Of a stretch of 64,000 nt of DNA, positions 1-49,013 are shown piece by piece; position 1 is the first letter of the stretch; the number at the start of each line of letters is the position of its first letter. The position numbers were made by a program, and so were the translations under genes. This stretch comes from a virus (Duplodnaviria > Heunggongvirae > Uroviricota > Caudoviricetes), in the IMG/VR virus record IMGVR_UViG_2721755651_000007, one strand, 5' to 3'. Below the pieces are notes generated by a model, which saw nothing but the letters and a program-made list of their open reading frames with translations, was not told the DNA's origin and did no database searches.

Positions 1-107
1 GCAGACCAGCACCCCATCCGCCAGCACCGACATGATTCTGCTGGTGAAATCCACCATCACCACCAGAAACAGCAGGAGTGCAGCCACAGCCAGGCGCAGT
101 TTTACCG

Positions 108-539
108 TCACAGGTGATTCTCCAGACGAAGACCCAGAACACCGGCAATCTCTTCCAGCACCTTGCGCTCTTCCGGCTCAATTTCGCCGTCTGCCTCCGC
201 AATGGCCACCGCCACATCCAGCACATCTTCCGCTTCACGCGTATCGTGTTTCACATCCTCAATCTCACGTAACGCCGCACGACGACCAGTTTTAAAGTTC
301 GTATCCAGCTGACCGATAATGGTTGCGCTAATCGCATTAATTTCTGACGTAAACGCGGACAGCGCAGGCTGATTACGCAGTACCTGTTCGATCTTCGCTT
401 TCTCGGATGCCTCACATTCACCATCTGCACAGGCCACCAGGTATGCGGCGTTAATCACCACCTGTGCCAGATCGCGTTTTTCAAACTTTTTAATTTCCGT
501 TGCCGCTCTGCGGGTTTTCTTTTTGAAGATTCCAAACAT
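108..539 (-). CDS. TerB-like (tellurite-resistance TerB family) protein; start placed at internal Met with AAAGGAA SD
   Basis: ORF 108..611; acidic helical protein with TerB-like AAYLVACADGE.. region; SD 8 nt upstream of MFGIFKKK. Confidence 0.45.
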   Translation of the reverse strand: MFGIFKKKTRRAATEIKKFEKRDLAQVVINAAYLVACADGECEASEKAKIEQVLRNQPALSAFTSEINAISATIIGQLDTNFKTGRRAALREIEDVKHDTREAEDVLDVAVAIAEADGEIEPEERKVLEEIAGVLGLRLENHL

Positions 540-708
540 CGTGACGTTCCTTTGGGTGGGTGAGCCAACGCCCGGGAGCGATCTGCCCACAGAGAAAGTC
601 ACACTGACCACTCCGTAAGCTCACCCCCGAAAGGCTCTGTGGTTGGTATGCGCCGGGCGTGGCGCAGATACAAAAAAGGCCCGCCGAAGCGAGCCTGGAA
701 AATAAGTG

Positions 709-785
709 TGGCGCGTTGTAGTGGAGTCGAACCACTGACCGATTGCTTAGAAGGCAATTGCTCTGTCCGGCTGAGCTAACAACGC
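709..785 (-). tRNA. argO: tRNA-Arg (anticodon UCU)
   Basis: 77-nt cloverleaf on minus strand: 7-bp acceptor stem, anticodon loop CUUCUAA, T-loop TTCGACT, 3' CCA; near-identical second copy at 48781..48857. Confidence 0.9.
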
Positions 786-885
786 AGAATACCGATAATG
801 GACCGCCATCGGGGACCCGGCCCCGCACCAACAACCCTGTTATGGTGTCGTCTGCTCTTCCTGATAAGCTAATGGCGGTTTGTGA
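786..885 (-). other. degenerate tRNA-like remnant between the Ile and Arg tRNAs (argN-position)
   Basis: tRNA-like acceptor and D-arm (CCGCCAT-TA-GCTT..GAGC ... ATGGCGG-T-CCA) but no canonical anticodon or T arm. Confidence 0.3.
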
Positions 886-961
886 TGGTGGCCCTTGCTG
901 GATTTGAACCAGCGACCTGGCGATTATGAGTCGCTCGCTCTCACCACTGAGCTAAAGGGCC
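886..961 (-). tRNA. ileZ: tRNA-Ile2 (anticodon CAU, ileX-like; Met not excluded)
   Basis: 76-nt cloverleaf, anticodon loop CUCAUAA, T-loop TTCAAAT, 3' CCA; resembles E. coli ileX. Confidence 0.85.
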
Positions 962-989
962 GAGCCAAAAAATAATAATCAGATGAAAA

Positions 990-1703
990 TCAATAATCAA
1001 GCCCTTGCCTGGATACATATCTGTCTGGCGGGAAGCCATAATAGCGGTGAAATACAGAAATAAAGTAGGACCGGCTTGAATAACCACATTTTTCTGCTAC
1101 AGCCTGTCCATATCCATACCGGGAACATAACATATTTACAGCAACACGCATCCGCTCTTCCAGCAACAAGCGACTGAACATGCCCCCTTCATTTTTCAGT
1201 TTTGTCTTTAACAAACTCTCACTCATATGCAACTGTAGAGCAATCGCACCAAGCGTCCAGCTTGCTGATATATCTGTCTGAATTATCGCCCTGACTTTGG
1301 CACTTATGCTGGATAAACATCCACTTAAAAACAATGACATCCGTTCATCTGTTTCAAACAGAGACAGGCAGGCCATCATAAGAAACATATCCGTGACCTC
1401 TCCGGAAAATCCCTGGCTGGTAATTAAAGCCGCAGCCAACGCAGGATTGTTGGGTTCCAGCAACAGGTAAAGCGGAATGTCAGTCAGACGAGTCCTCGTC
1501 AGCTTATGCTGACTTTCCAGATATTGACTTACGACGGATTCGCTTATATCGACAATTTTAACTTTGCCATAATGCATAAGGAAAAGCTCCCTGATGCATT
1601 TGGTGGCCAGAACGACTGAGCCTGGCTTAAGTGACAACGTATCCTTTTCAAGAAAAATATTAATTGGGGAGCAAACCATGATAACTGAACAGACAACAGC
1701 CAT
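990..1703 (-). CDS. AraC-family transcriptional regulator
   Basis: ORF 990..1703; C-terminal AraC-type HTH region (..GYSSRSYFISVFHRYYGFPP..); occupies the Q-to-lysis cargo slot. Confidence 0.7.
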   Translation of the reverse strand: MAVVCSVIMVCSPINIFLEKDTLSLKPGSVVLATKCIRELFLMHYGKVKIVDISESVVSQYLESQHKLTRTRLTDIPLYLLLEPNNPALAAALITSQGFSGEVTDMFLMMACLSLFETDERMSLFLSGCLSSISAKVRAIIQTDISASWTLGAIALQLHMSESLLKTKLKNEGGMFSRLLLEERMRVAVNMLCSRYGYGQAVAEKCGYSSRSYFISVFHRYYGFPPDRYVSRQGLDY

Positions 1704-1838
1704 TATAATTTTACTTTCATTAGCAATTGGTTAGCTCAATTATAGCCCCAAAAGGTAAATTATCATCAACACATAAGCAAAGGACTGACAGGTGCCGCCC
1801 CCCCCACCAGCCGCCCATTTACCACAAATAAAAAGCCT

Positions 1839-2036
1839 TCAGGACTGAATGCGTCTGTAACAACCGCACTGATAGTCTGCCAGACCCGCCATAACCAGCT
1901 GGGTCAGTATTAACTGGCAGCGTTCGCGTGAAAGGTAAGTATTCTGCGCAATCTCCCCGACTGTCGCCGGTTCGGTAACGCTTAATTCATTAAACACCAC
2001 TCTGGCGGTTTCTGTCATATCCTGCTGTTTTAGCAT
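1839..2036 (-). CDS. hypothetical first late-operon protein (65 aa from MLKQQ)
   Basis: ORF 1839..2159; conserved copy at 50263..50583; lies immediately downstream of tR'-like terminator. Confidence 0.4.
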   Translation of the reverse strand: MLKQQDMTETARVVFNELSVTEPATVGEIAQNTYLSRERCQLILTQLVMAGLADYQCGCYRRIQS

Positions 2037-2158
2037 GTCTTTTTCCCTTTTCCGGTTAACGTGACATACCAATAACTCTTGTCGAAAAAGCCAGCAAGTT
2101 GAAAGACCGGTATTAGCAACCACCAGCGCGTTTAACGCCCCGTGCCGTTTTTCAGTCA

Positions 2159-2186
2159 TAAAAAAACCCGCAAAAAGCGGGCTCTT
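2159..2186 (-). terminator. tR'-like intrinsic terminator downstream of Q (prophage A)
   Basis: minus-strand hairpin GCCCGCTTTTTGCGGGC followed by T7 run. Confidence 0.5.
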
Positions 2187-2260
2187 TCAAATGTCCATGT
2201 CTGCTATTCGCCTCGCGGTACAGCTTTGCGAAGCTTACCGGAATTGAAGCAGTTTTTACG

Positions 2261-2827
2261 TCAAAAAGCAATAACTTTTTTCTCTATACCAAAAGCCATA
2301 ACCATTGGTTTGTACAAAATAAATTCTGCCACCTTTAGCCAATGCTCAATGCGTCTTTCACAGGTTCTTAAACTCCATTCCGGATGTGCATCATTCAGCA
2401 ATTCAGCCATTTTGCGCTTAGTCATCCCCCGCCCCACATAACGCTGACTCAGAACATTGAGCAGCCCGGGATAACCTGCCAGTACTTCACCAATAACCCT
2501 ATCGATTATTAACGCCTCTGAATCGGTACAATGTGCCAGCCAGCTTTTTTGATTGCCGTTGATCATATCCCGCAAAAAAGCCTCAAGTTCAGGTTTGTCC
2601 AGACCCGCTTTTTTCATCCTCCGGAGCGCCTCGTTAATTGCCGTTTTTGTCAGCTTTTTAGAGGTCAGTAATTGGTTGAACATATTTCCCGTCTTACCGT
2701 CGCCAATATACGACCAACGCCCCCACATACGCAGTTTCCCCTGGATCCAGACACTTTCCAGCGTTTTCAGGCGTAAATGCTCACCGCTTTTGCCTGTAAT
2801 TTCCGGGTATATCATATTTATGCTCAC
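2261..2827 (-). CDS. Q-like late antiterminator (QuuD-type family)
   Basis: position between rusA and tR'; WGRW motif region resembles QuuD-type Q proteins; paralog at 50702..51244. Confidence 0.6.
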   Translation of the reverse strand: MSINMIYPEITGKSGEHLRLKTLESVWIQGKLRMWGRWSYIGDGKTGNMFNQLLTSKKLTKTAINEALRRMKKAGLDKPELEAFLRDMINGNQKSWLAHCTDSEALIIDRVIGEVLAGYPGLLNVLSQRYVGRGMTKRKMAELLNDAHPEWSLRTCERRIEHWLKVAEFILYKPMVMAFGIEKKVIAF

Positions 2828-2877
2828 TCACTTTCAATTTTGTAAATCTTCACGCCCAGCCGCCCACCAGAAACGAG

Positions 2878-3183
2878 CTAGCCGCGCACAATATTGATTT
2901 CATCAAACTGCTCGTCGTCTATGAGAAGTCCGGCATGCGTCAGCGCATCCAGTGGTGCTTTCAGGATATTGTCCAGGTCACGACGGCGCTTATCCGGTGG
3001 CTCTGCAATAATCTTTATCGCCAGCCTTCCGGACAGGTTTAATTTCAGCCGCTGCTGGCGAACAATAAGTGCCACATCCCGGCGATAACGCTCACCGGCT
3101 TTTGATACAAAATATGTGCTGCCACGACGTCGCCAGTAGGTGTTCACCGTCGGCGGGTAAGGCAAAACAAACTCTATACGCAT
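2878..3183 (-). CDS. rusA: RusA Holliday junction resolvase
   Basis: LPYPPTVNTYWRRRG ... DKRRRDLDNILKAPLDAL matches RusA family. Confidence 0.85.
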   Translation of the reverse strand: MRIEFVLPYPPTVNTYWRRRGSTYFVSKAGERYRRDVALIVRQQRLKLNLSGRLAIKIIAEPPDKRRRDLDNILKAPLDALTHAGLLIDDEQFDEINIVRG

Positions 3184-3195
3184 CAGTAACCTCTT

Positions 3196-4245
3196 TTACC
3201 CGAGCACGCCGGTTGCAAAGGCGTGATCAAGAAAACGAAAAATTAAATCAACCTGGGAACCATGCTTTTCTTCGAACGCCAGCGGATCCGCATGAAGCTC
3301 GTTGTGATGCTCCCGACACAGCGGTAGCGTGAAAATATCGTGGGATTTTGTTCCCATTCCGCCCTGACCATGACCAATCAGATGATGAGGATCGTCCGCT
3401 GGCTTACCACAACACGCACACGGCTGTGTCTTTACCCAGCGTGTGTATTTCTCATTTACCCAGCGGCGACGTTTAGGTCGTTTCATGAAGGATTCCGGAG
3501 ACTCCGGATCAACGGCAATGCTGACCACCGTCTTTTCCTGTGGTGGGTTCTGTTGCTGGTGGGTGTGAGGCGGTAGCGCAATATTTTTTGTGCGCTGCTT
3601 CAGTATGCTGGTGGCGGTCTGTTCTCCCGGTATGATGTCGCTTTCACGGTATACGGAGCGGATTTTTTCCGCCGGTAATCCCAGAGAGCGACGCGATACT
3701 GCCTCAGGTAATGCGTCCACCACCTGATTGCAGACTGCCCACCAGGATAATTCAGCCAGCGATAATTCCCGCTCCTGCGTGCCATTCATTACATGGCGTA
3801 TGACGTCAATCATCCAGGCTGTCAGATTTTGTTGAGTAAGTTGCTCAAGTGATTCGGAGGTCTGGTCGCGCAGCTGGTTGTCGCAGTGCCAGCACAACAC
3901 CATTGCGCCAGCACCGTAACTGTGAATAACGGTTTCGCTGTGATGATAATCGCCGTGTGGCCACTGGCAGGATTTCACGTGACGTAATAACCAGTCAGAC
4001 AGTGCACCAGCGCCGCCAGCTGCACGAATCACCCGCTCATCGCTGAAAAATGGCAGCAGTGATTTATCTTCCGCCAGCGGCTGGCGAACAGCAGGAACCG
4101 CTCCAGATGGCAGCGCCCGCATGTTTTTCGGTTCCGGCTCCACCAGCACCCTGCCGCGATGAAAAACTGGCAATGATTCACGACCGGGCTTAAGGACCAC
4201 CAGCCCGAGTTCCGGAACCAGAACAGGTCGAAGTAATACCCGCAC
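3196..4245 (-). CDS. DUF968-like phage protein with C-terminal HNH/zinc-binding-like motif
   Basis: C-terminal CACCGKPADDPHHLIGHGQGGMGTKSHD..PLCREHHNELH; GTG start with GGAGG SD; paralog 51613..52659. Confidence 0.55.
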   Translation of the reverse strand: MRVLLRPVLVPELGLVVLKPGRESLPVFHRGRVLVEPEPKNMRALPSGAVPAVRQPLAEDKSLLPFFSDERVIRAAGGAGALSDWLLRHVKSCQWPHGDYHHSETVIHSYGAGAMVLCWHCDNQLRDQTSESLEQLTQQNLTAWMIDVIRHVMNGTQERELSLAELSWWAVCNQVVDALPEAVSRRSLGLPAEKIRSVYRESDIIPGEQTATSILKQRTKNIALPPHTHQQQNPPQEKTVVSIAVDPESPESFMKRPKRRRWVNEKYTRWVKTQPCACCGKPADDPHHLIGHGQGGMGTKSHDIFTLPLCREHHNELHADPLAFEEKHGSQVDLIFRFLDHAFATGVLG

Positions 4246-4246
4246 A

Positions 4247-4519
4247 TTACCTCCAGACGCGCTGACGGTAGCAGGCATGTGTCCGTGGCAGATGTGCACG
4301 AACAGGAAGATATACAGAAACGGTCCAGGTCAGACGATCAGCGTTCAGACTCCGCTCCACACGGACACCGCGACGCAGATACGCCTCTTGAAGCATATCT
4401 GCCTCATCGATCGTACAGAACAGATAGTGAAACCAGCCATACTGAGGCGCACGAAAACGCCTCCCCTGCTTAATTTCCGGGTCGGCTTCAGAATTGTGGG
4501 ATTTTATGTGTTGTGTCAT
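4247..4519 (-). CDS. hypothetical nin-region protein
   Basis: ORF 4247..4519, stop overlaps DUF968 SD; divergent positional homolog at 52661..52939. Confidence 0.4.
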   Translation of the reverse strand: MTQHIKSHNSEADPEIKQGRRFRAPQYGWFHYLFCTIDEADMLQEAYLRRGVRVERSLNADRLTWTVSVYLPVRAHLPRTHACYRQRVWR

Positions 4520-4640: not shown

Positions 4641-4985
4641 TTACTTTAATAATTTCAGTGCCTTTACATCAACTTCAACACTGCTCAGGTCTTTATCAAT
4701 TTCACCCTCAATTCTTACTTTGTCTTTCGGAGAAACATTCTGCCCGGCCCATACGCTGTCATCAATATCCGTGACAATTGTCCCGCTATTGTCACGAAAC
4801 TCATAACGTTCATCACCCACTTTTTTAACGATGCTCCCTTCAAGGATAACCCATGCATCATCCTTCAGTTCTTTTGCCTGCGCTACTGTTGAACGCTCTG
4901 CTTCTGGCCCCTGGAAACCACCCTGCTGTGCAAAAGCGCCAAAAGACACACCGGAAATAAGTGCTGCAATCAATACCTTTTTCAT
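4641..4985 (-). CDS. YgiW/YdeI-family periplasmic OB-fold (BOF) protein
   Basis: signal peptide MKKVLIAALISGVSFGAFA, length and composition typical of YgiW family. Confidence 0.7.
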   Translation of the reverse strand: MKKVLIAALISGVSFGAFAQQGGFQGPEAERSTVAQAKELKDDAWVILEGSIVKKVGDERYEFRDNSGTIVTDIDDSVWAGQNVSPKDKVRIEGEIDKDLSSVEVDVKALKLLK

Positions 4986-5104: not shown

Positions 5105-5260
5105 TTACTTCTCAGATTCGTAGTCTACGAAGACAGCGACCTCCGTCTGACCGGTTCGGATTCGCACCTCGCAGAGGTCTTTCCTCGTTACCAGTGCCGT
5201 CACTATGACGGTTAAACAGATGACGATCAGGGCGATTAACATCGCCTTTTGCTGCTTCAT
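5105..5260 (-). CDS. hok: Hok/Gef-family type I toxin (51 aa)
   Basis: MKQQKAMLIALIVICLTVIVTALVTRKDLCEVRIRTGQTEVAVF closely resembles HokC/Gef; in-frame upstream extension in ORF 5105..5317 looks mok-like. Confidence 0.8.
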   Translation of the reverse strand: MKQQKAMLIALIVICLTVIVTALVTRKDLCEVRIRTGQTEVAVFVDYESEK

Positions 5261-5550
5261 AGCCTGCTTCTCCTTGCCTTTCGGCACGTAAGAGGCTAAC
5301 CTACATGTGTTCAGCATGGATTGAGCCTCAGATTAATGTTAAGCGTCTTGCAGGACGCGTAATGTTAACTGGGGCTTTTCTCTATCTGCCGTTGGTGTTC
5401 ATGCCCGAGGCAGATAGCCTCAAGCACCCGCAGCAATTCTACTTAACTATCCTTTTCCCGCAAACCGTTTTTATCCCCAGCGGCAAATCGAATACACCAC
5501 CAGCGCCACCGCCATCGCAATTCCTACCGTTGTGAATGCTTCAGGCCAGG

Positions 5551-7089: not shown

Positions 7090-7980
7090 TCAGGCTGCCA
7101 GATCATCGTTTCCGATGGAAGCATAATAAGCTTTTTCTGCTTCTGCCGGAGGAGTATGGCCCAGCCTTCCCAGCAATCGTCGATTGTTATACCAGTCCAC
7201 CCACGTTAGTGTGGCCAGTTCCACTTCTGCACGGTTTTTCCAGCTCTTACGGTGTATTACCTCCGCTTTGTAAAGACCATTGATGCTCTCAGCCATCGCG
7301 TTGTCATACGAGTCGCCTGTACTCCCTGTTGATGCCAGTAATCCGGCTTCTTTTAGTCGCTCCGTATAGGCCAGTGACACATACTGAGAGCCTTTATCGC
7401 TGTGATGGATGGTGCCAGACGGACGACGGGCCCACAACGCCTGCTCCAGCGCATCCAGCACGAATGTCGTTTCCATAGACGATGAGACCCGCCACCCCAC
7501 GATGTATCCGGCAAACACATCAATGATAAACGCCACATAGACGAAGCCCTGCCATGTGCTGACGTAAGTAAAATCAGCCACCCACAGCTGGTCAGGTCGT
7601 TCTGCCACGAACTGACGGTTTACGCGGTCGCCTGCGGCAACGGCTTTCCGGCTGATGGTCGTACGGACCTTTTTACCCCGGAGAACACCGGCAAGTCCCA
7701 TAACCGCCATGAGACGTGCCACTGTACATCTGGCCACCCTGATTCCTTCCCGTAACAACTGACGCCAGACTTTACGCACACCGTACACCTGATGATTTTC
7801 ATCGTATACGCGCTGTATCTCTCTCTTCAGCCAGTCGTCGTGCTGCGCACGGGCACTGCGTTTATCCGGATGATGTCGCTGTTGCTGACAATGGTAATAC
7901 GTTGACGGGGCAATATGCAGTTCGCTGCATACCGGTCCGACCCCGTACTGCTCACGCAGCTTATCCAGCAGTGGCATCAT
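7090..7980 (-). CDS. IS3-family transposase OrfB (integrase core)
   Basis: 296 aa; DDE region ..[10 protein letters not shown].. [10 protein letters not shown]. Confidence 0.9.
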
Positions 7981-8303
7981 TTTTTCCAGAGGCGGTCGAA
8001 CTCCGCCTTCGCAAAATAAGCGGAAGCCTGGCGAAGGATATCGTTACTGCGGCGCAGTTCACGATTTTCACGTTCCAGCTCTTTCAGACGCTGACGTTCA
8101 GCGCTGGTGAGCCCACCATCACCGCCCCCGGTATCCCGCTCATGCTGGCGAACCCAGACACGCAGAGTCTCCGGCGTACAGCCAATCTTTGGGGCAATGG
8201 AACAAATTGCCGCCCACTGTGAGTCATATTCATCCTGACTTTCCAGAACCATACGAATCGCCCGCTGACGGACTTCGGGGGAAAAACGAGTATTTTTAGT
8301 CAT
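7977..8303 (-). CDS. IS3-family transposase OrfA
   Basis: 108 aa HTH plus leucine-zipper protein overlapping orfB. Confidence 0.9.
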
Positions 8304-46403: not shown

Positions 46404-48257
46404 TTATGATGATGCCGGTGCATTTATCTCCAGCACCAGACTTTCTATCTCAACGCCATACGCTGCATTTTTTGTAACATCCGTCAGCGTCAGCGCATTC
46501 AGTCCCAGTGTCAGACTGTCTTTTATAACCTGGAATGCCGGGCCAGCCACTCCATTCAGTTTCGGAGTAACCGTGGCACTGCCGGCGGTGAACACCAGCT
46601 CCAGCGTCTGCCAGTCGTTACCGTAATCGCCGAACTCCCCCAGCTTCGTGTTTCCGGCTTTCCTGTGATGCATCAGATTCACTCTGCCGTCAGTGGTCTG
46701 AGTGAAGTACGACATCAGGAACGGATTACCGGTACCCGTCATCGCCACACCATCAGGAACGGGAGCATCCGTATACAGATAAATCCCCAGCCCGAACTGA
46801 TTGTTGGTCAGTGCGCCTGACAGGCGGAACTTACAGGTCAGTCTGCCGCCCTGTGTCAGCAGGGTAATTGCGTCATCCACCGGATGCGTCAGGGACCAGG
46901 TTTTATTGCTCTGCCTGGTGATCTTAAATACACCATCTGACAACTGAATTCCGCCATCCTTAATGCTCCAGCCCTGCGCAGCAGCCTCTCCGGCTGCCGG
47001 CAGCAGGGAGATTGTGCGAACGGACGTATCTGCAGACGGACCCGATGGCGTGTTGCCGCCGGGCGAGGGTTTGATTTCCGGTGCCTTACCACTGATGAAG
47101 GCTGAGGTGCGCCCGGCTGCGTTCAGAATAGCGGTTGCCATACGATCCGGAATAATGCTCCTGCGCGCCCATGAACTGAAATGTGTCGGGCGGTTTGATG
47201 ATACCTGGTTTCCATTCGTTCTCGATGCCGCACCGTAATATCCTGATGCCGGAATATCCGGATCTTCTGCCGGCGCGTTAGTGGCGGTATTGACGCCGTT
47301 ACCGTCTGTCATGAAGGGCACAAAATAAACGCCCTCACTCTCCCTGTTTTTGTACGCCCCGTAAATGGTGTTGTACTGGGTGCCGTAGGTATTTTTCCAG
47401 TAATACGTCGTGTCACCACAAATCCACGGCACATCTGCAGCACTGCCACCATGGCACTGCGCGTTAAACACGGAGAGGTCAGCACGAAACTGTGCCAGCA
47501 TGGCTGTAAACAGCGCAGGTTGCTGTGCGTGGGTGGCGGCGCTCATGTCAAACTCTCCCTGCATCCAGCACACCGCCAGCAACACATTTTTCGGGTTCTT
47601 CTGTAATGCAGCTTTAGTGCGCGCAATCAGGTCCTGATATAACGGTTTACCCACACCCCAGCGCGCCGAATCCTGGCTGGCCCCCGCGTCCGCACTGAAT
47701 GTCCCCTCCGCGCCCTGGGTGAATGCCGAACCACCACGACAGCATGGTACCAGCAGGATCCCCGCGTTATTCGGGATATACGGAAGCAGTTTTTTGGCAA
47801 TATGTAAGCCCTGGCCGACACAGCCGTACTGCCCTTTGCTCAGGTCTGCCTTCGGATGATTCAGCGTACTCATATCCTGCACATCATGCAGGCAGTGGTC
47901 GGCCGGAATAATATCGTTATATCTGCAGGCAGCCCCACCCGGCGTAACTGTACTGCGGCGCGCCAGCTGTTTAATGCGCGGATCCGGAGCATCGTATGAA
48001 TCCGGCAGCGGAAGCCCTTCACCGTAAGCCATGGCATTGGACTGCCCGGCCAGTACGATGACGTAGTACCAATCCGGCTCAGTTGCACCACTGACCACCA
48101 CATCACCTTCTGCTGTAATCACCTGCATCAGGGTATAAGGGGTTATGGCCACCGGACTACCAAACGGCTGCCAGCCCTCTTTCAGTTTGTGTGTCAGCTT
48201 TTCCGCAAGGTCTGACGGCGACGCCGCCCTGACAACATCATAATGTTTAAATGTCAT
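46404..48257 (-). CDS. NanS-p-like sialate O-acetylesterase with C-terminal carbohydrate-binding region
   Basis: MTFKHYDVV.. N-terminal domain, SGNH/SASA-like core; location is the nanS-p slot of Stx-type phages. Confidence 0.7.
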
Positions 48258-48780
48258 TATTCCTCCCCTTTCCGGGATTTTCCTCAACAGTTGCGGGCCA
48301 CGGTCCGGCCACAAGGAGAATCAAAAGAGGAGAACCGCAGCCCGCAAAACGAAAAAGGCCGCGCAGTTGCGCAGCCTTATAAACCCTGGTTAAAATCCAC
48401 ACGATAAAAATGACAATGCAAGTATCTCATGCTGTTGCCCGAACCCACTCGGGCTTTTTTTTGCATGTAAAAAGGCTCCTGCGATGAGAAGCCTGGATAT
48501 ATGCCTAATCTCTGTATACAGCATGATGCCGGGTGCCTCCCGGTGAATTCTGCAATGACCAGACAGAATCCGCAACTTGCCTATACAATACGCAACCAAA
48601 CATCTGTCATTATGCCCCGCCGCTCAGGGGGATTCATCATGCAGGATTTTTTTAACAAACGCTCAGCATGTCAGGCAACAGTCAACTGCCTGAATTGTGA
48701 GGCATTTAACATTTCACTGTCCGGTGTCTTTCCTGTAATAAAAAGCCCGCAAAAGAGAGTCAGGGCAGATAAGTGTGGTG

Positions 48781-48857
48781 TGGTGCGTTGTACTGGATTC
48801 GAACCAGTGACCGATTGCTTAGAAGGCAATTGCTCTGTCCGGCTGAGCTAACAACGC
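48781..48857 (-). tRNA. argO: tRNA-Arg (anticodon UCU)
   Basis: 77-nt cloverleaf, anticodon loop CUUCUAA, CCA end. Confidence 0.9.
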
Positions 48858-48937
48858 AGAATACCGATAATGGACCGCCACCGGGGACTCCGAATCTCGC
48901 ACAGGGTGACGTTCTTTCCTGATGAGCTAGTGGCGGT
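48858..48937 (-). other. degenerate tRNA-like remnant (argN-position)
   Basis: 7-bp acceptor-like helix and CCA but only about 67 nt and no canonical anticodon or T arm. Confidence 0.3.
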
Positions 48938-49013
48938 TGGTGGCCCTTGCTGGATTTGAACCAGCGACCTGGCGATTATGAGTCGCTCGCTCTCACCGCT
49001 GAGCTAAAGGGCC
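48938..49013 (-). tRNA. ileZ: tRNA-Ile2 (anticodon CAU, ileX-like)
   Basis: 76-nt cloverleaf, anticodon loop CUCAUAA, CCA end. Confidence 0.85.

Follow-up and report, generated by a model that had tools for sequence, protein, structure and literature searches.

Prophages of enterohaemorrhagic Escherichia coli (EHEC) O157:H7 carry AraC-family regulators that act on host genes, among them PsrA and PsrB (Tree et al. 2011; Yang et al. 2015; via PMC10877973, PMC8565820). According to these reviews, PsrB is the product of z2104 in O-island 57 (OI-57, 1849324-1929825) and its closest homologue is PsrA, with 90% identity. PsrB binds the gadE and hdeA promoters and activates the glutamate-dependent acid-resistance (GAD) regulon; when expressed, it improves survival at pH 2.5-3.5 and in the mouse stomach, and in trans it represses type III secretion encoded by the enterocyte effacement locus (LEE) indirectly, via GadE and YhiF (PMC10877973, PMC8565820). 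Here we examine the start of a 64,000-nt stretch of DNA (virus record IMGVR_UViG_2721755651_000007; the whole stretch is called the window), which contains two prophages, A and B. A sequence-only reading had singled out positions 108-1703 for an AraC-family and a TerB-like gene in the late region of prophage A. We consider it very probable that this segment is an accessory block of the O157:H7 prophage Sp11, in which psrB, the known GAD and LEE regulator, is accompanied by a promoter-like element of its own.

Two further regulators of the same family, AppY (DLP12 prophage, K-12) and PatE (OI-8), are likewise prophage-carried and target acid resistance through gadE and hdeA (AR2 regulon), the same pathway as PsrB; they differ from PsrB in sequence lineage, prophage and position, and AppY is controlled by ArcA, H-NS, RpoS and DpiAB (PMC10057817); psrB is not known to be under equivalent control. 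For the arrangement of the locus, the closest described systems are the Shiga toxin (Stx) phages, which share a backbone of Q, pR', tR', ileZ/argN/argO, a terminator, a cargo slot, nanS-p and the S-R-Rz genes (PMC7547250). The cargo slot holds the toxin in Stx phages and a TerB/DUF3927 pair in the window; the Q of the window is of the DUF1133 type, and its predicted pR'-tR' transcript is ~75 nt long, as against 258 nt for StxS (PMC7547250). A homologous TerB-like and DUF3927-like pair, TciA/TciB, is known from P1, and the pair of the window matches the same families (phrog_632, phrog_1470); the P1 pair is found in the P1 genome, that of the window in a lambdoid late region.

Identity of the AraC-family gene

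Positions 1-4400 of the window are 100% identical to many E. coli O157:H7 genomes. The Sakai copy lies in prophage Sp11 and comprises genes ECs2190-ECs2195, and the EDL933 copy, also 100% identical, is found at 1902577-1906976, within OI-57. The whole window corresponds to O157 strain 319 (CP018241.1, 1753774-1817773, reverse strand), an identity compared directly over 22.8 kb (0 mismatches) and over the last 24 kb. In EDL933, both prophages of the window jointly form O-island 57. Assignment of the window to Sakai Sp11 followed by Sp12 was ruled out, as the second prophage does not match the Sakai coordinates.

The EDL933 copy of the AraC-family gene (1905274-1905987) is inside OI-57; no other AraC gene occurs in the inspected 64 kb of the island (1849000-1912976 of the record, the final ~17 kb falling outside this range). 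The paa/adfO gene is present at the start of OI-57, matching the review description, which supports the collinearity of the old and new EDL933 assemblies. The only O157 paralogue located, ECs1087 (Sp4; CP-933M in EDL933), shares 215 of 237 residues with the protein of the window (90.7%), which fits the figure published for PsrA and PsrB. Since the position in OI-57, the single AraC gene inspected there, the collinearity and the paralogue all concur, the gene of the window is best identified as psrB of O157:H7, with the name taken from genome position and the reviews. The linkage described for the Psr regulators is also present: pchB (PerC family) follows the lysis genes and nleG genes are found at the prophage ends, while the Sp4-like psr copy likewise adjoins a PerC-family gene. 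Like that of the known system, the locus here belongs to a prophage and is linked to pchB and to effector genes; for PsrB we found no difference between the two, in locus or in sequence.

The placement of psrA in EDL933 OI-50, where the reviews put z1789, was rejected: no psr gene is found there, and the 90.7% paralogue sits in CP-933M/Sp4. The discrepancy comes either from a misplacement in the original EDL933 assembly or from a difference between stocks. In the OI-50 prophage of EDL933 CP008957 (locus L003, 15898-16367), a remnant of a winged-helix open reading frame (ORF) is fused to codon 18 of tciA and annotated as a TerB pseudogene.

The 237-aa product of psrB matches PF00165 (HTH_AraC; E 2.9e-13, 50.0 bits, cut-off 26.6) and PF12833 (HTH_18; E 2.4e-9, 37.8 bits, cut-off 33.6). 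The two helix-turn-helix matches span residues 155-230, as expected for the C-terminal DNA-binding domain of AraC/XylS regulators, and the protein aligns end to end with phrog_1450 (E 3.8e-99). Its best NCBIfam matches are YdeO, GadX and GadW, chromosomal AraC regulators of the acid fitness island. The YdeO model covers residues 1-229, but the scores fall far below the equivalog cut-offs (YdeO 106.1 bits against 348; GadX 87.3 bits against 500), pointing to relatives and not orthologues. The alignment to YdeO and phrog_1450 begins at residue 1, and the 237-aa form is therefore preferred; the shorter start of the original Sakai annotation (195 aa) is disfavoured, as residues 1-42 are part of these alignments.

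The sequence-only reading held up on the presence of both genes: Pfam and PHROG matches support them, RefSeq annotates exactly the psrB and tciA coding sequences on identical DNA, and positions 108 and 1703 are exactly the outer ends of the TerB-family and AraC-family coding sequences. It had named disabling mutations in the regulator as what would speak against its proposal; none was found in psrB or tciA, both being full length against their family profiles, and pairwise dN/dS (nonsynonymous to synonymous substitution rates) among three psr copies is 0.22-0.43, with 0.13-0.27 in the DNA-binding half. As judged by these comparisons, both genes are intact. The action on host genes that the same reading had suggested for a prophage AraC regulator was already published for PsrB (gadE, hdeA). 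Among 5426 complete E. coli genomes, 726 carry psr DNA, as a rule in two copies, with 589 records at an identity of at least 99%, and the exact psrB and tciA proteins occur on ~1000 or more public contigs.

The psr cassette and the expression of psrB

Homology to prophage B, as judged by alignments, breaks at ~1790 and resumes just upstream of ileZ at ~965. The segment between these points carries psrB, whose GC content is 43.8%, compared to 50-54% in neighbouring genes. The psr slot thus combines replacement at a fixed position with a deviating base composition, the features by which lambdoid morons are recognised, and this supports a view of psrB, and likewise of tciA, as probable accessory cargo (morons).

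Inside this psr-specific cassette, 36 nt upstream of the psrB ATG, a promoter-like element ATGATA-16 nt-TATAAT matches the consensus at 10 of 12 positions. It is present in all three aligned psr copies and absent from prophage B, which bears a methylase gene instead. The cassette itself lacks a terminator; the nearest downstream is that behind argO, which folds with -19.9 kcal/mol (z -2.56) and is conserved in 4 of 4 loci compared. Folding revealed no strong hairpin between the winged-helix ORF and psrB or between psrB and ileZ. In the model that we favour, psrB would be an 825-bp moron that brought its own sigma-70-like promoter. The transcript from this promoter would read into ileZ-argO and end at the terminator behind argO, so that a lysogen would express psrB weakly and without need of Q. 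When the cognate Q is present, transcripts from pR' that pass tR' would only supplement this output.

Several points weigh against this model or against the identification as psrB. The cassette as a whole is 91-94% identical, so that conservation of the promoter-like element carries no information, and a promoter function can only be inferred since promoter-like sites are no more frequent than in shuffled sequence (4 found in the consensus scan against 3.4 expected; counts of terminator-like sites were not above chance either). No database record names the protein PsrB, the name coming from genome position and review articles. Finally, deletion of psrB had little effect in uninduced cultures (PMC10877973, PMC8565820), a weak phenotype that would also fit a gene silent in lysogeny and in need of Q.

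Upstream of the cassette lies a putative Q-dependent module. The Q protein matches PF06576 (E 3.7e-105), PF06530 (E 5.9e-8) and phrog_753, and has a weak but significant match to the Q21 structure (PDB 6P18, E 4.8e-4). The Q21 family acts via a cassette composed of the Q gene, pR', a pause element and a terminator. A hairpin with a U tract, 68-101 nt past the Q stop codon, is our candidate tR' (-18.2 kcal/mol, z -5.8; none of 200 shuffles was as stable). The consensus scan missed this hairpin, probably because its stem can extend into the U tract, and it was folded separately. An equivalent hairpin with a different stem sequence is found in prophage B and other loci, and those of prophages A and B both fold stably. 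A candidate for the late promoter pR' was read by eye as TTGCTT-17 nt-TTCAAT, followed by the -10-like TAAGCT, with a TG at -15/-14 in the prophage A copy only; its core (TTGCTT, TTCAAT/TTGAAT, TAAGCT) recurs in prophage B. This candidate pR' was not among the sites called by the consensus scan, and there is no known Q-binding element for a DUF1133-type Q.

With such a module in place, psrB and tciA could be expressed essentially only from the Q-antiterminated late transcript, tying PsrB output and thereby GAD and LEE regulation to prophage induction. We regard this as unlikely, although it has points in its favour. Both genes follow Q on its own strand behind a strong terminator, and no second strong one precedes psrB; pR' of Stx phages is constitutive and halted at tR' until Q acts; and the little effect of psrB deletion without induction stands beside activity of PsrB in trans (PMC10877973, PMC8565820). 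Furthermore, the Q of prophage B (50702-51244, likewise of the DUF1133 type) is 76.6% identical and its pR' core is conserved, which makes activation in trans by another prophage conceivable. However, the psr cassette has its own promoter-like element, and the paralogue in the same cassette, psrA, shows a deletion phenotype in uninduced cultures (PMC10877973, PMC8565820). In addition, SOS-inducing sulfamethoxazole-trimethoprim left the paralogue ECs1087 without induction, while expression of a gene next to it in Sp4 went up; for Sp11, the study of strain PA20 did report 17 of 69 genes as up (PMC5931665).

The state of prophage A also argues against strict Q-dependence. Prophage A is defective: the integrase and RecE are truncated, and in this strain IS1203 is inserted between the replication genes and Q. 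This IS3-family element, at 7090-8303 in the nin region, interrupts a gene for a small DNA-binding protein, which is unbroken in Sakai; the insertion could have a polar effect on the expression of Q from the early promoter. In Sakai, excision and replication of Sp11 do not occur. Downstream, the holin, lysozyme and Rz genes are intact. A cell in which Q is active would therefore probably undergo lysis, leaving little time for a regulon switch to matter. Coupling to induction, as proposed by the sequence-only reading, is therefore unlikely to be the main mode of psrB expression, as far as this can be judged from sequence and published data.

A CI-repressor-like ORF of 212 aa is found in prophage A at 11670-12308 (+); it has HTH_3 and Peptidase_S24 domains and runs without interruption. 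The RefSeq annotation covers no more than the C-terminal 112 aa of it, and the Sp11 repressor is described in the literature as disrupted; inspection by eye for an Ala-Gly cleavage site in this ORF revealed no obvious one.

It is very improbable that psrB and tciA are functionless leftovers decaying in a dead prophage: the defective prophage, the decayed argN and the pseudogene state of tciA in EDL933 OI-50 would fit, but a pseudogene reading is rejected by the full-length profile matches and by the purifying selection on psr seen in dN/dS, alleles at the above identity are kept in hundreds of complete genomes, and gain-of-function phenotypes and DNA binding are published for PsrB, a native-locus phenotype existing for PsrA and being weak for PsrB.

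The late region around psrB

Over its first 4.4 kb, the window has genes on the minus strand only (Table 1). The location of psrB and tciA downstream of Q and of the strong candidate tR' (z -5.8), on the same strand, agrees with their description as late-region cargo in the sequence-only reading. That reading also had this cargo replacing toxin or esterase genes of related phages. There are in fact two separate slots, the first from the winged-helix ORF to ileZ and the second from argO to the esterase. Slot 1 holds psrB in prophage A and an N6/N4 DNA methylase in prophage B; slot 2 holds tciA/tciB in prophage A, is empty in prophage B and carries stx in Stx phages. Replacement of the toxin is thus correct for tciA/tciB, which occupy the stx slot, but not for psr, which coexists with stx2 in phiSTEC1575-Stx2k in the order Q, winged-helix ORF, psr (91.6% identical), three tRNAs, stx2AB. 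Replacement of the esterase did not stand: in every identical genome a SASA-family esterase (nanS-p type) follows tciA/tciB, ~370 bp beyond window position 1, and is followed in turn by holin, lysozyme, Rz and pchB.

Within 108-1703 we also found two tRNA genes and an intrinsic terminator that the sequence-only reading had not listed. The usual trio is ileZ-argN-argO, and its middle member argN (UCG) is decayed in both prophages (786-885 and 48858-48937, both on the minus strand). Both remnants can be aligned to intact argN copies, that of prophage A to those of the Sp4-like and Stx2k loci, but have lost the anticodon arm; in prophage A no tRNA is called there. In a search of the region with Rfam, only ileZ and argO were above threshold. 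The psrB gene is rich in rare codons, with AUA at 4 of 14 Ile codons and AGA or AGG at 5 of 13 Arg codons, and these are the codons read by the adjacent phage tRNAs.

A sub-threshold isrK-like Rfam match (2161-2234, minus strand; 19.8 bits, E 0.47) spans the predicted ~75-nt pR'-tR' transcript. IsrK is an Hfq-binding RNA of Salmonella Gifsy-1, and the predicted transcript could be a by-product small RNA of the StxS kind. As shown by a four-locus alignment, the terminator and the small winged-helix ORF (phrog_331), which is the first gene past the candidate tR', form a conserved module; the gene ahead of it differs in all four loci, being a Q gene of one of two types, a CPBP protease gene or an unrelated gene. 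A longer winged-helix frame of 106 aa begins inside the terminator U tract.

The tciA product matches PF05099 (TerB; 52.2 bits, cut-off 24.4, E 9.2e-14) and, over positions 1-143 of 143, phrog_632 'tellurite resistance' (E 1e-68), a label that reflects homology only and should be taken as such. The limits 108-611 for tciA were rejected as an upstream GTG extension: the ATG is at 539, with an AAGGAA Shine-Dalgarno sequence 7 nt before it and a 137-nt GC-rich leader. The GTG start of tciB overlaps the tciA stop codon (GTGA). Homologues of tciA include P1 TciA (40.6% identity over the full length) and proteins of phage Evi (97%) and of Erwinia jumbo phages (66-71%), with further relatives in P7 and in Vibrio, Klebsiella and Pseudomonas phages; phage TerB-domain proteins of this kind are widespread. 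In phage Evi the pair likewise follows Q, and PHROGs class both genes as moron. PADLOC gave no defence-system match for four proteins of the region. No tciA/tciB promoter is visible behind the argO terminator, and tciA/tciB would most likely be the genes that depend strictly on Q.

Accessory genes are also present upstream of Q, in the nin region: a toxin locus of the hok/mok type and a gene whose product, a stress-tolerance protein of the YgiW/YdeI family, has a signal peptide.

Table 1. Positions of features in the window (in the last row, also in comparison loci)
Feature	Position	Strand	Basis or remark
tciB, 5' part (DUF3927, phrog_1470)	1-111	-	rest beyond window edge
tciA (ECs2190), 143-aa TerB-family protein, P1 TciA homologue	108-539	-	
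Intrinsic terminator past argO, 8-bp GC-rich stem and U tract	677-696	-	
argO, tRNA-Arg (UCU)	709-785	-	
Decayed argN (tRNA-Arg UCG) remnant	786-885	-	alignment to intact argN
ileZ, tRNA-Ile2 (CAU)	886-961	-	Met called by ARAGORN; tRNA-Ile in genome annotations
psr moron cassette (putative), approximate limits	965-1790	-	homology breaks against prophage B
Promoter-like TTGATT-17 nt-TATTAT, ahead of ileZ	972-1000	-	consensus scan
psrB (z2104 / ECs2191; WP_000301797.1), 237-aa AraC/XylS regulator	990-1703	-	Pfam, NCBIfam, PHROG
Promoter-like ATGATA-16 nt-TATAAT	1739-1766	-	consensus scan
Small winged-helix ORF (ECs2192, phrog_331, weak TrmB-like)	1839-2036, start maybe 2159	-	
Strong intrinsic terminator, candidate tR'	2160-2193	-	folding
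Candidate late promoter pR'	~2232-2271	-	read by eye
Q antiterminator (DUF1133; distant Q21/Q933W-family member)	2261-2815	-	PF06576, PF06530, phrog_753, PDB 6P18
rusA	2878-3183	-	between DUF968 gene and Q
DUF968 gene	3196-4245	-	first in transcription order
YgiW/YdeI-family and hok/mok-type accessory genes	4641-4985 and 5105-5317	-	
Prophage B DUF6645/esterase-position gene	46404-48314		no gene in the tciA/stx slot before it
Prophage B tRNAs	48938-49013 and 48781-48857		
N6/N4 DNA methyltransferase, prophage B psr-equivalent slot	49054-50112	-	
Other copies of the winged-helix module	window 50263-50640; loci L004 8560-8863 and L005 7178-7480		

PsrB and the circuits of EHEC

Both psrB and tciA are already known genes, and the regulator is partly characterised in the most-studied EHEC lineage. 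A contribution of Q read-through to psrB expression is not addressed in the reviews (PMC10877973, PMC8565820). One could imagine that read-through at tR', with Q possibly supplied in trans by the neighbouring prophage, boosts PsrB, so that upon induction of any of the O157 prophages the affected cells would transiently turn on acid resistance and turn off LEE secretion, with ileZ and argO aiding translation of the AUA- and AGR-rich psrB; we give this extension of the favoured model little credence.

PsrB belongs to a set of AraC regulators, carried by prophages, through which horizontally acquired DNA is wired into the core acid-resistance and virulence circuits of EHEC, and this role is established. 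Control of psrB itself may lie with a promoter of its own, with H-NS or with Q read-through. In the last case, prophage induction would be tied to type III secretion as well as to acid tolerance, which would refine a known system modestly.

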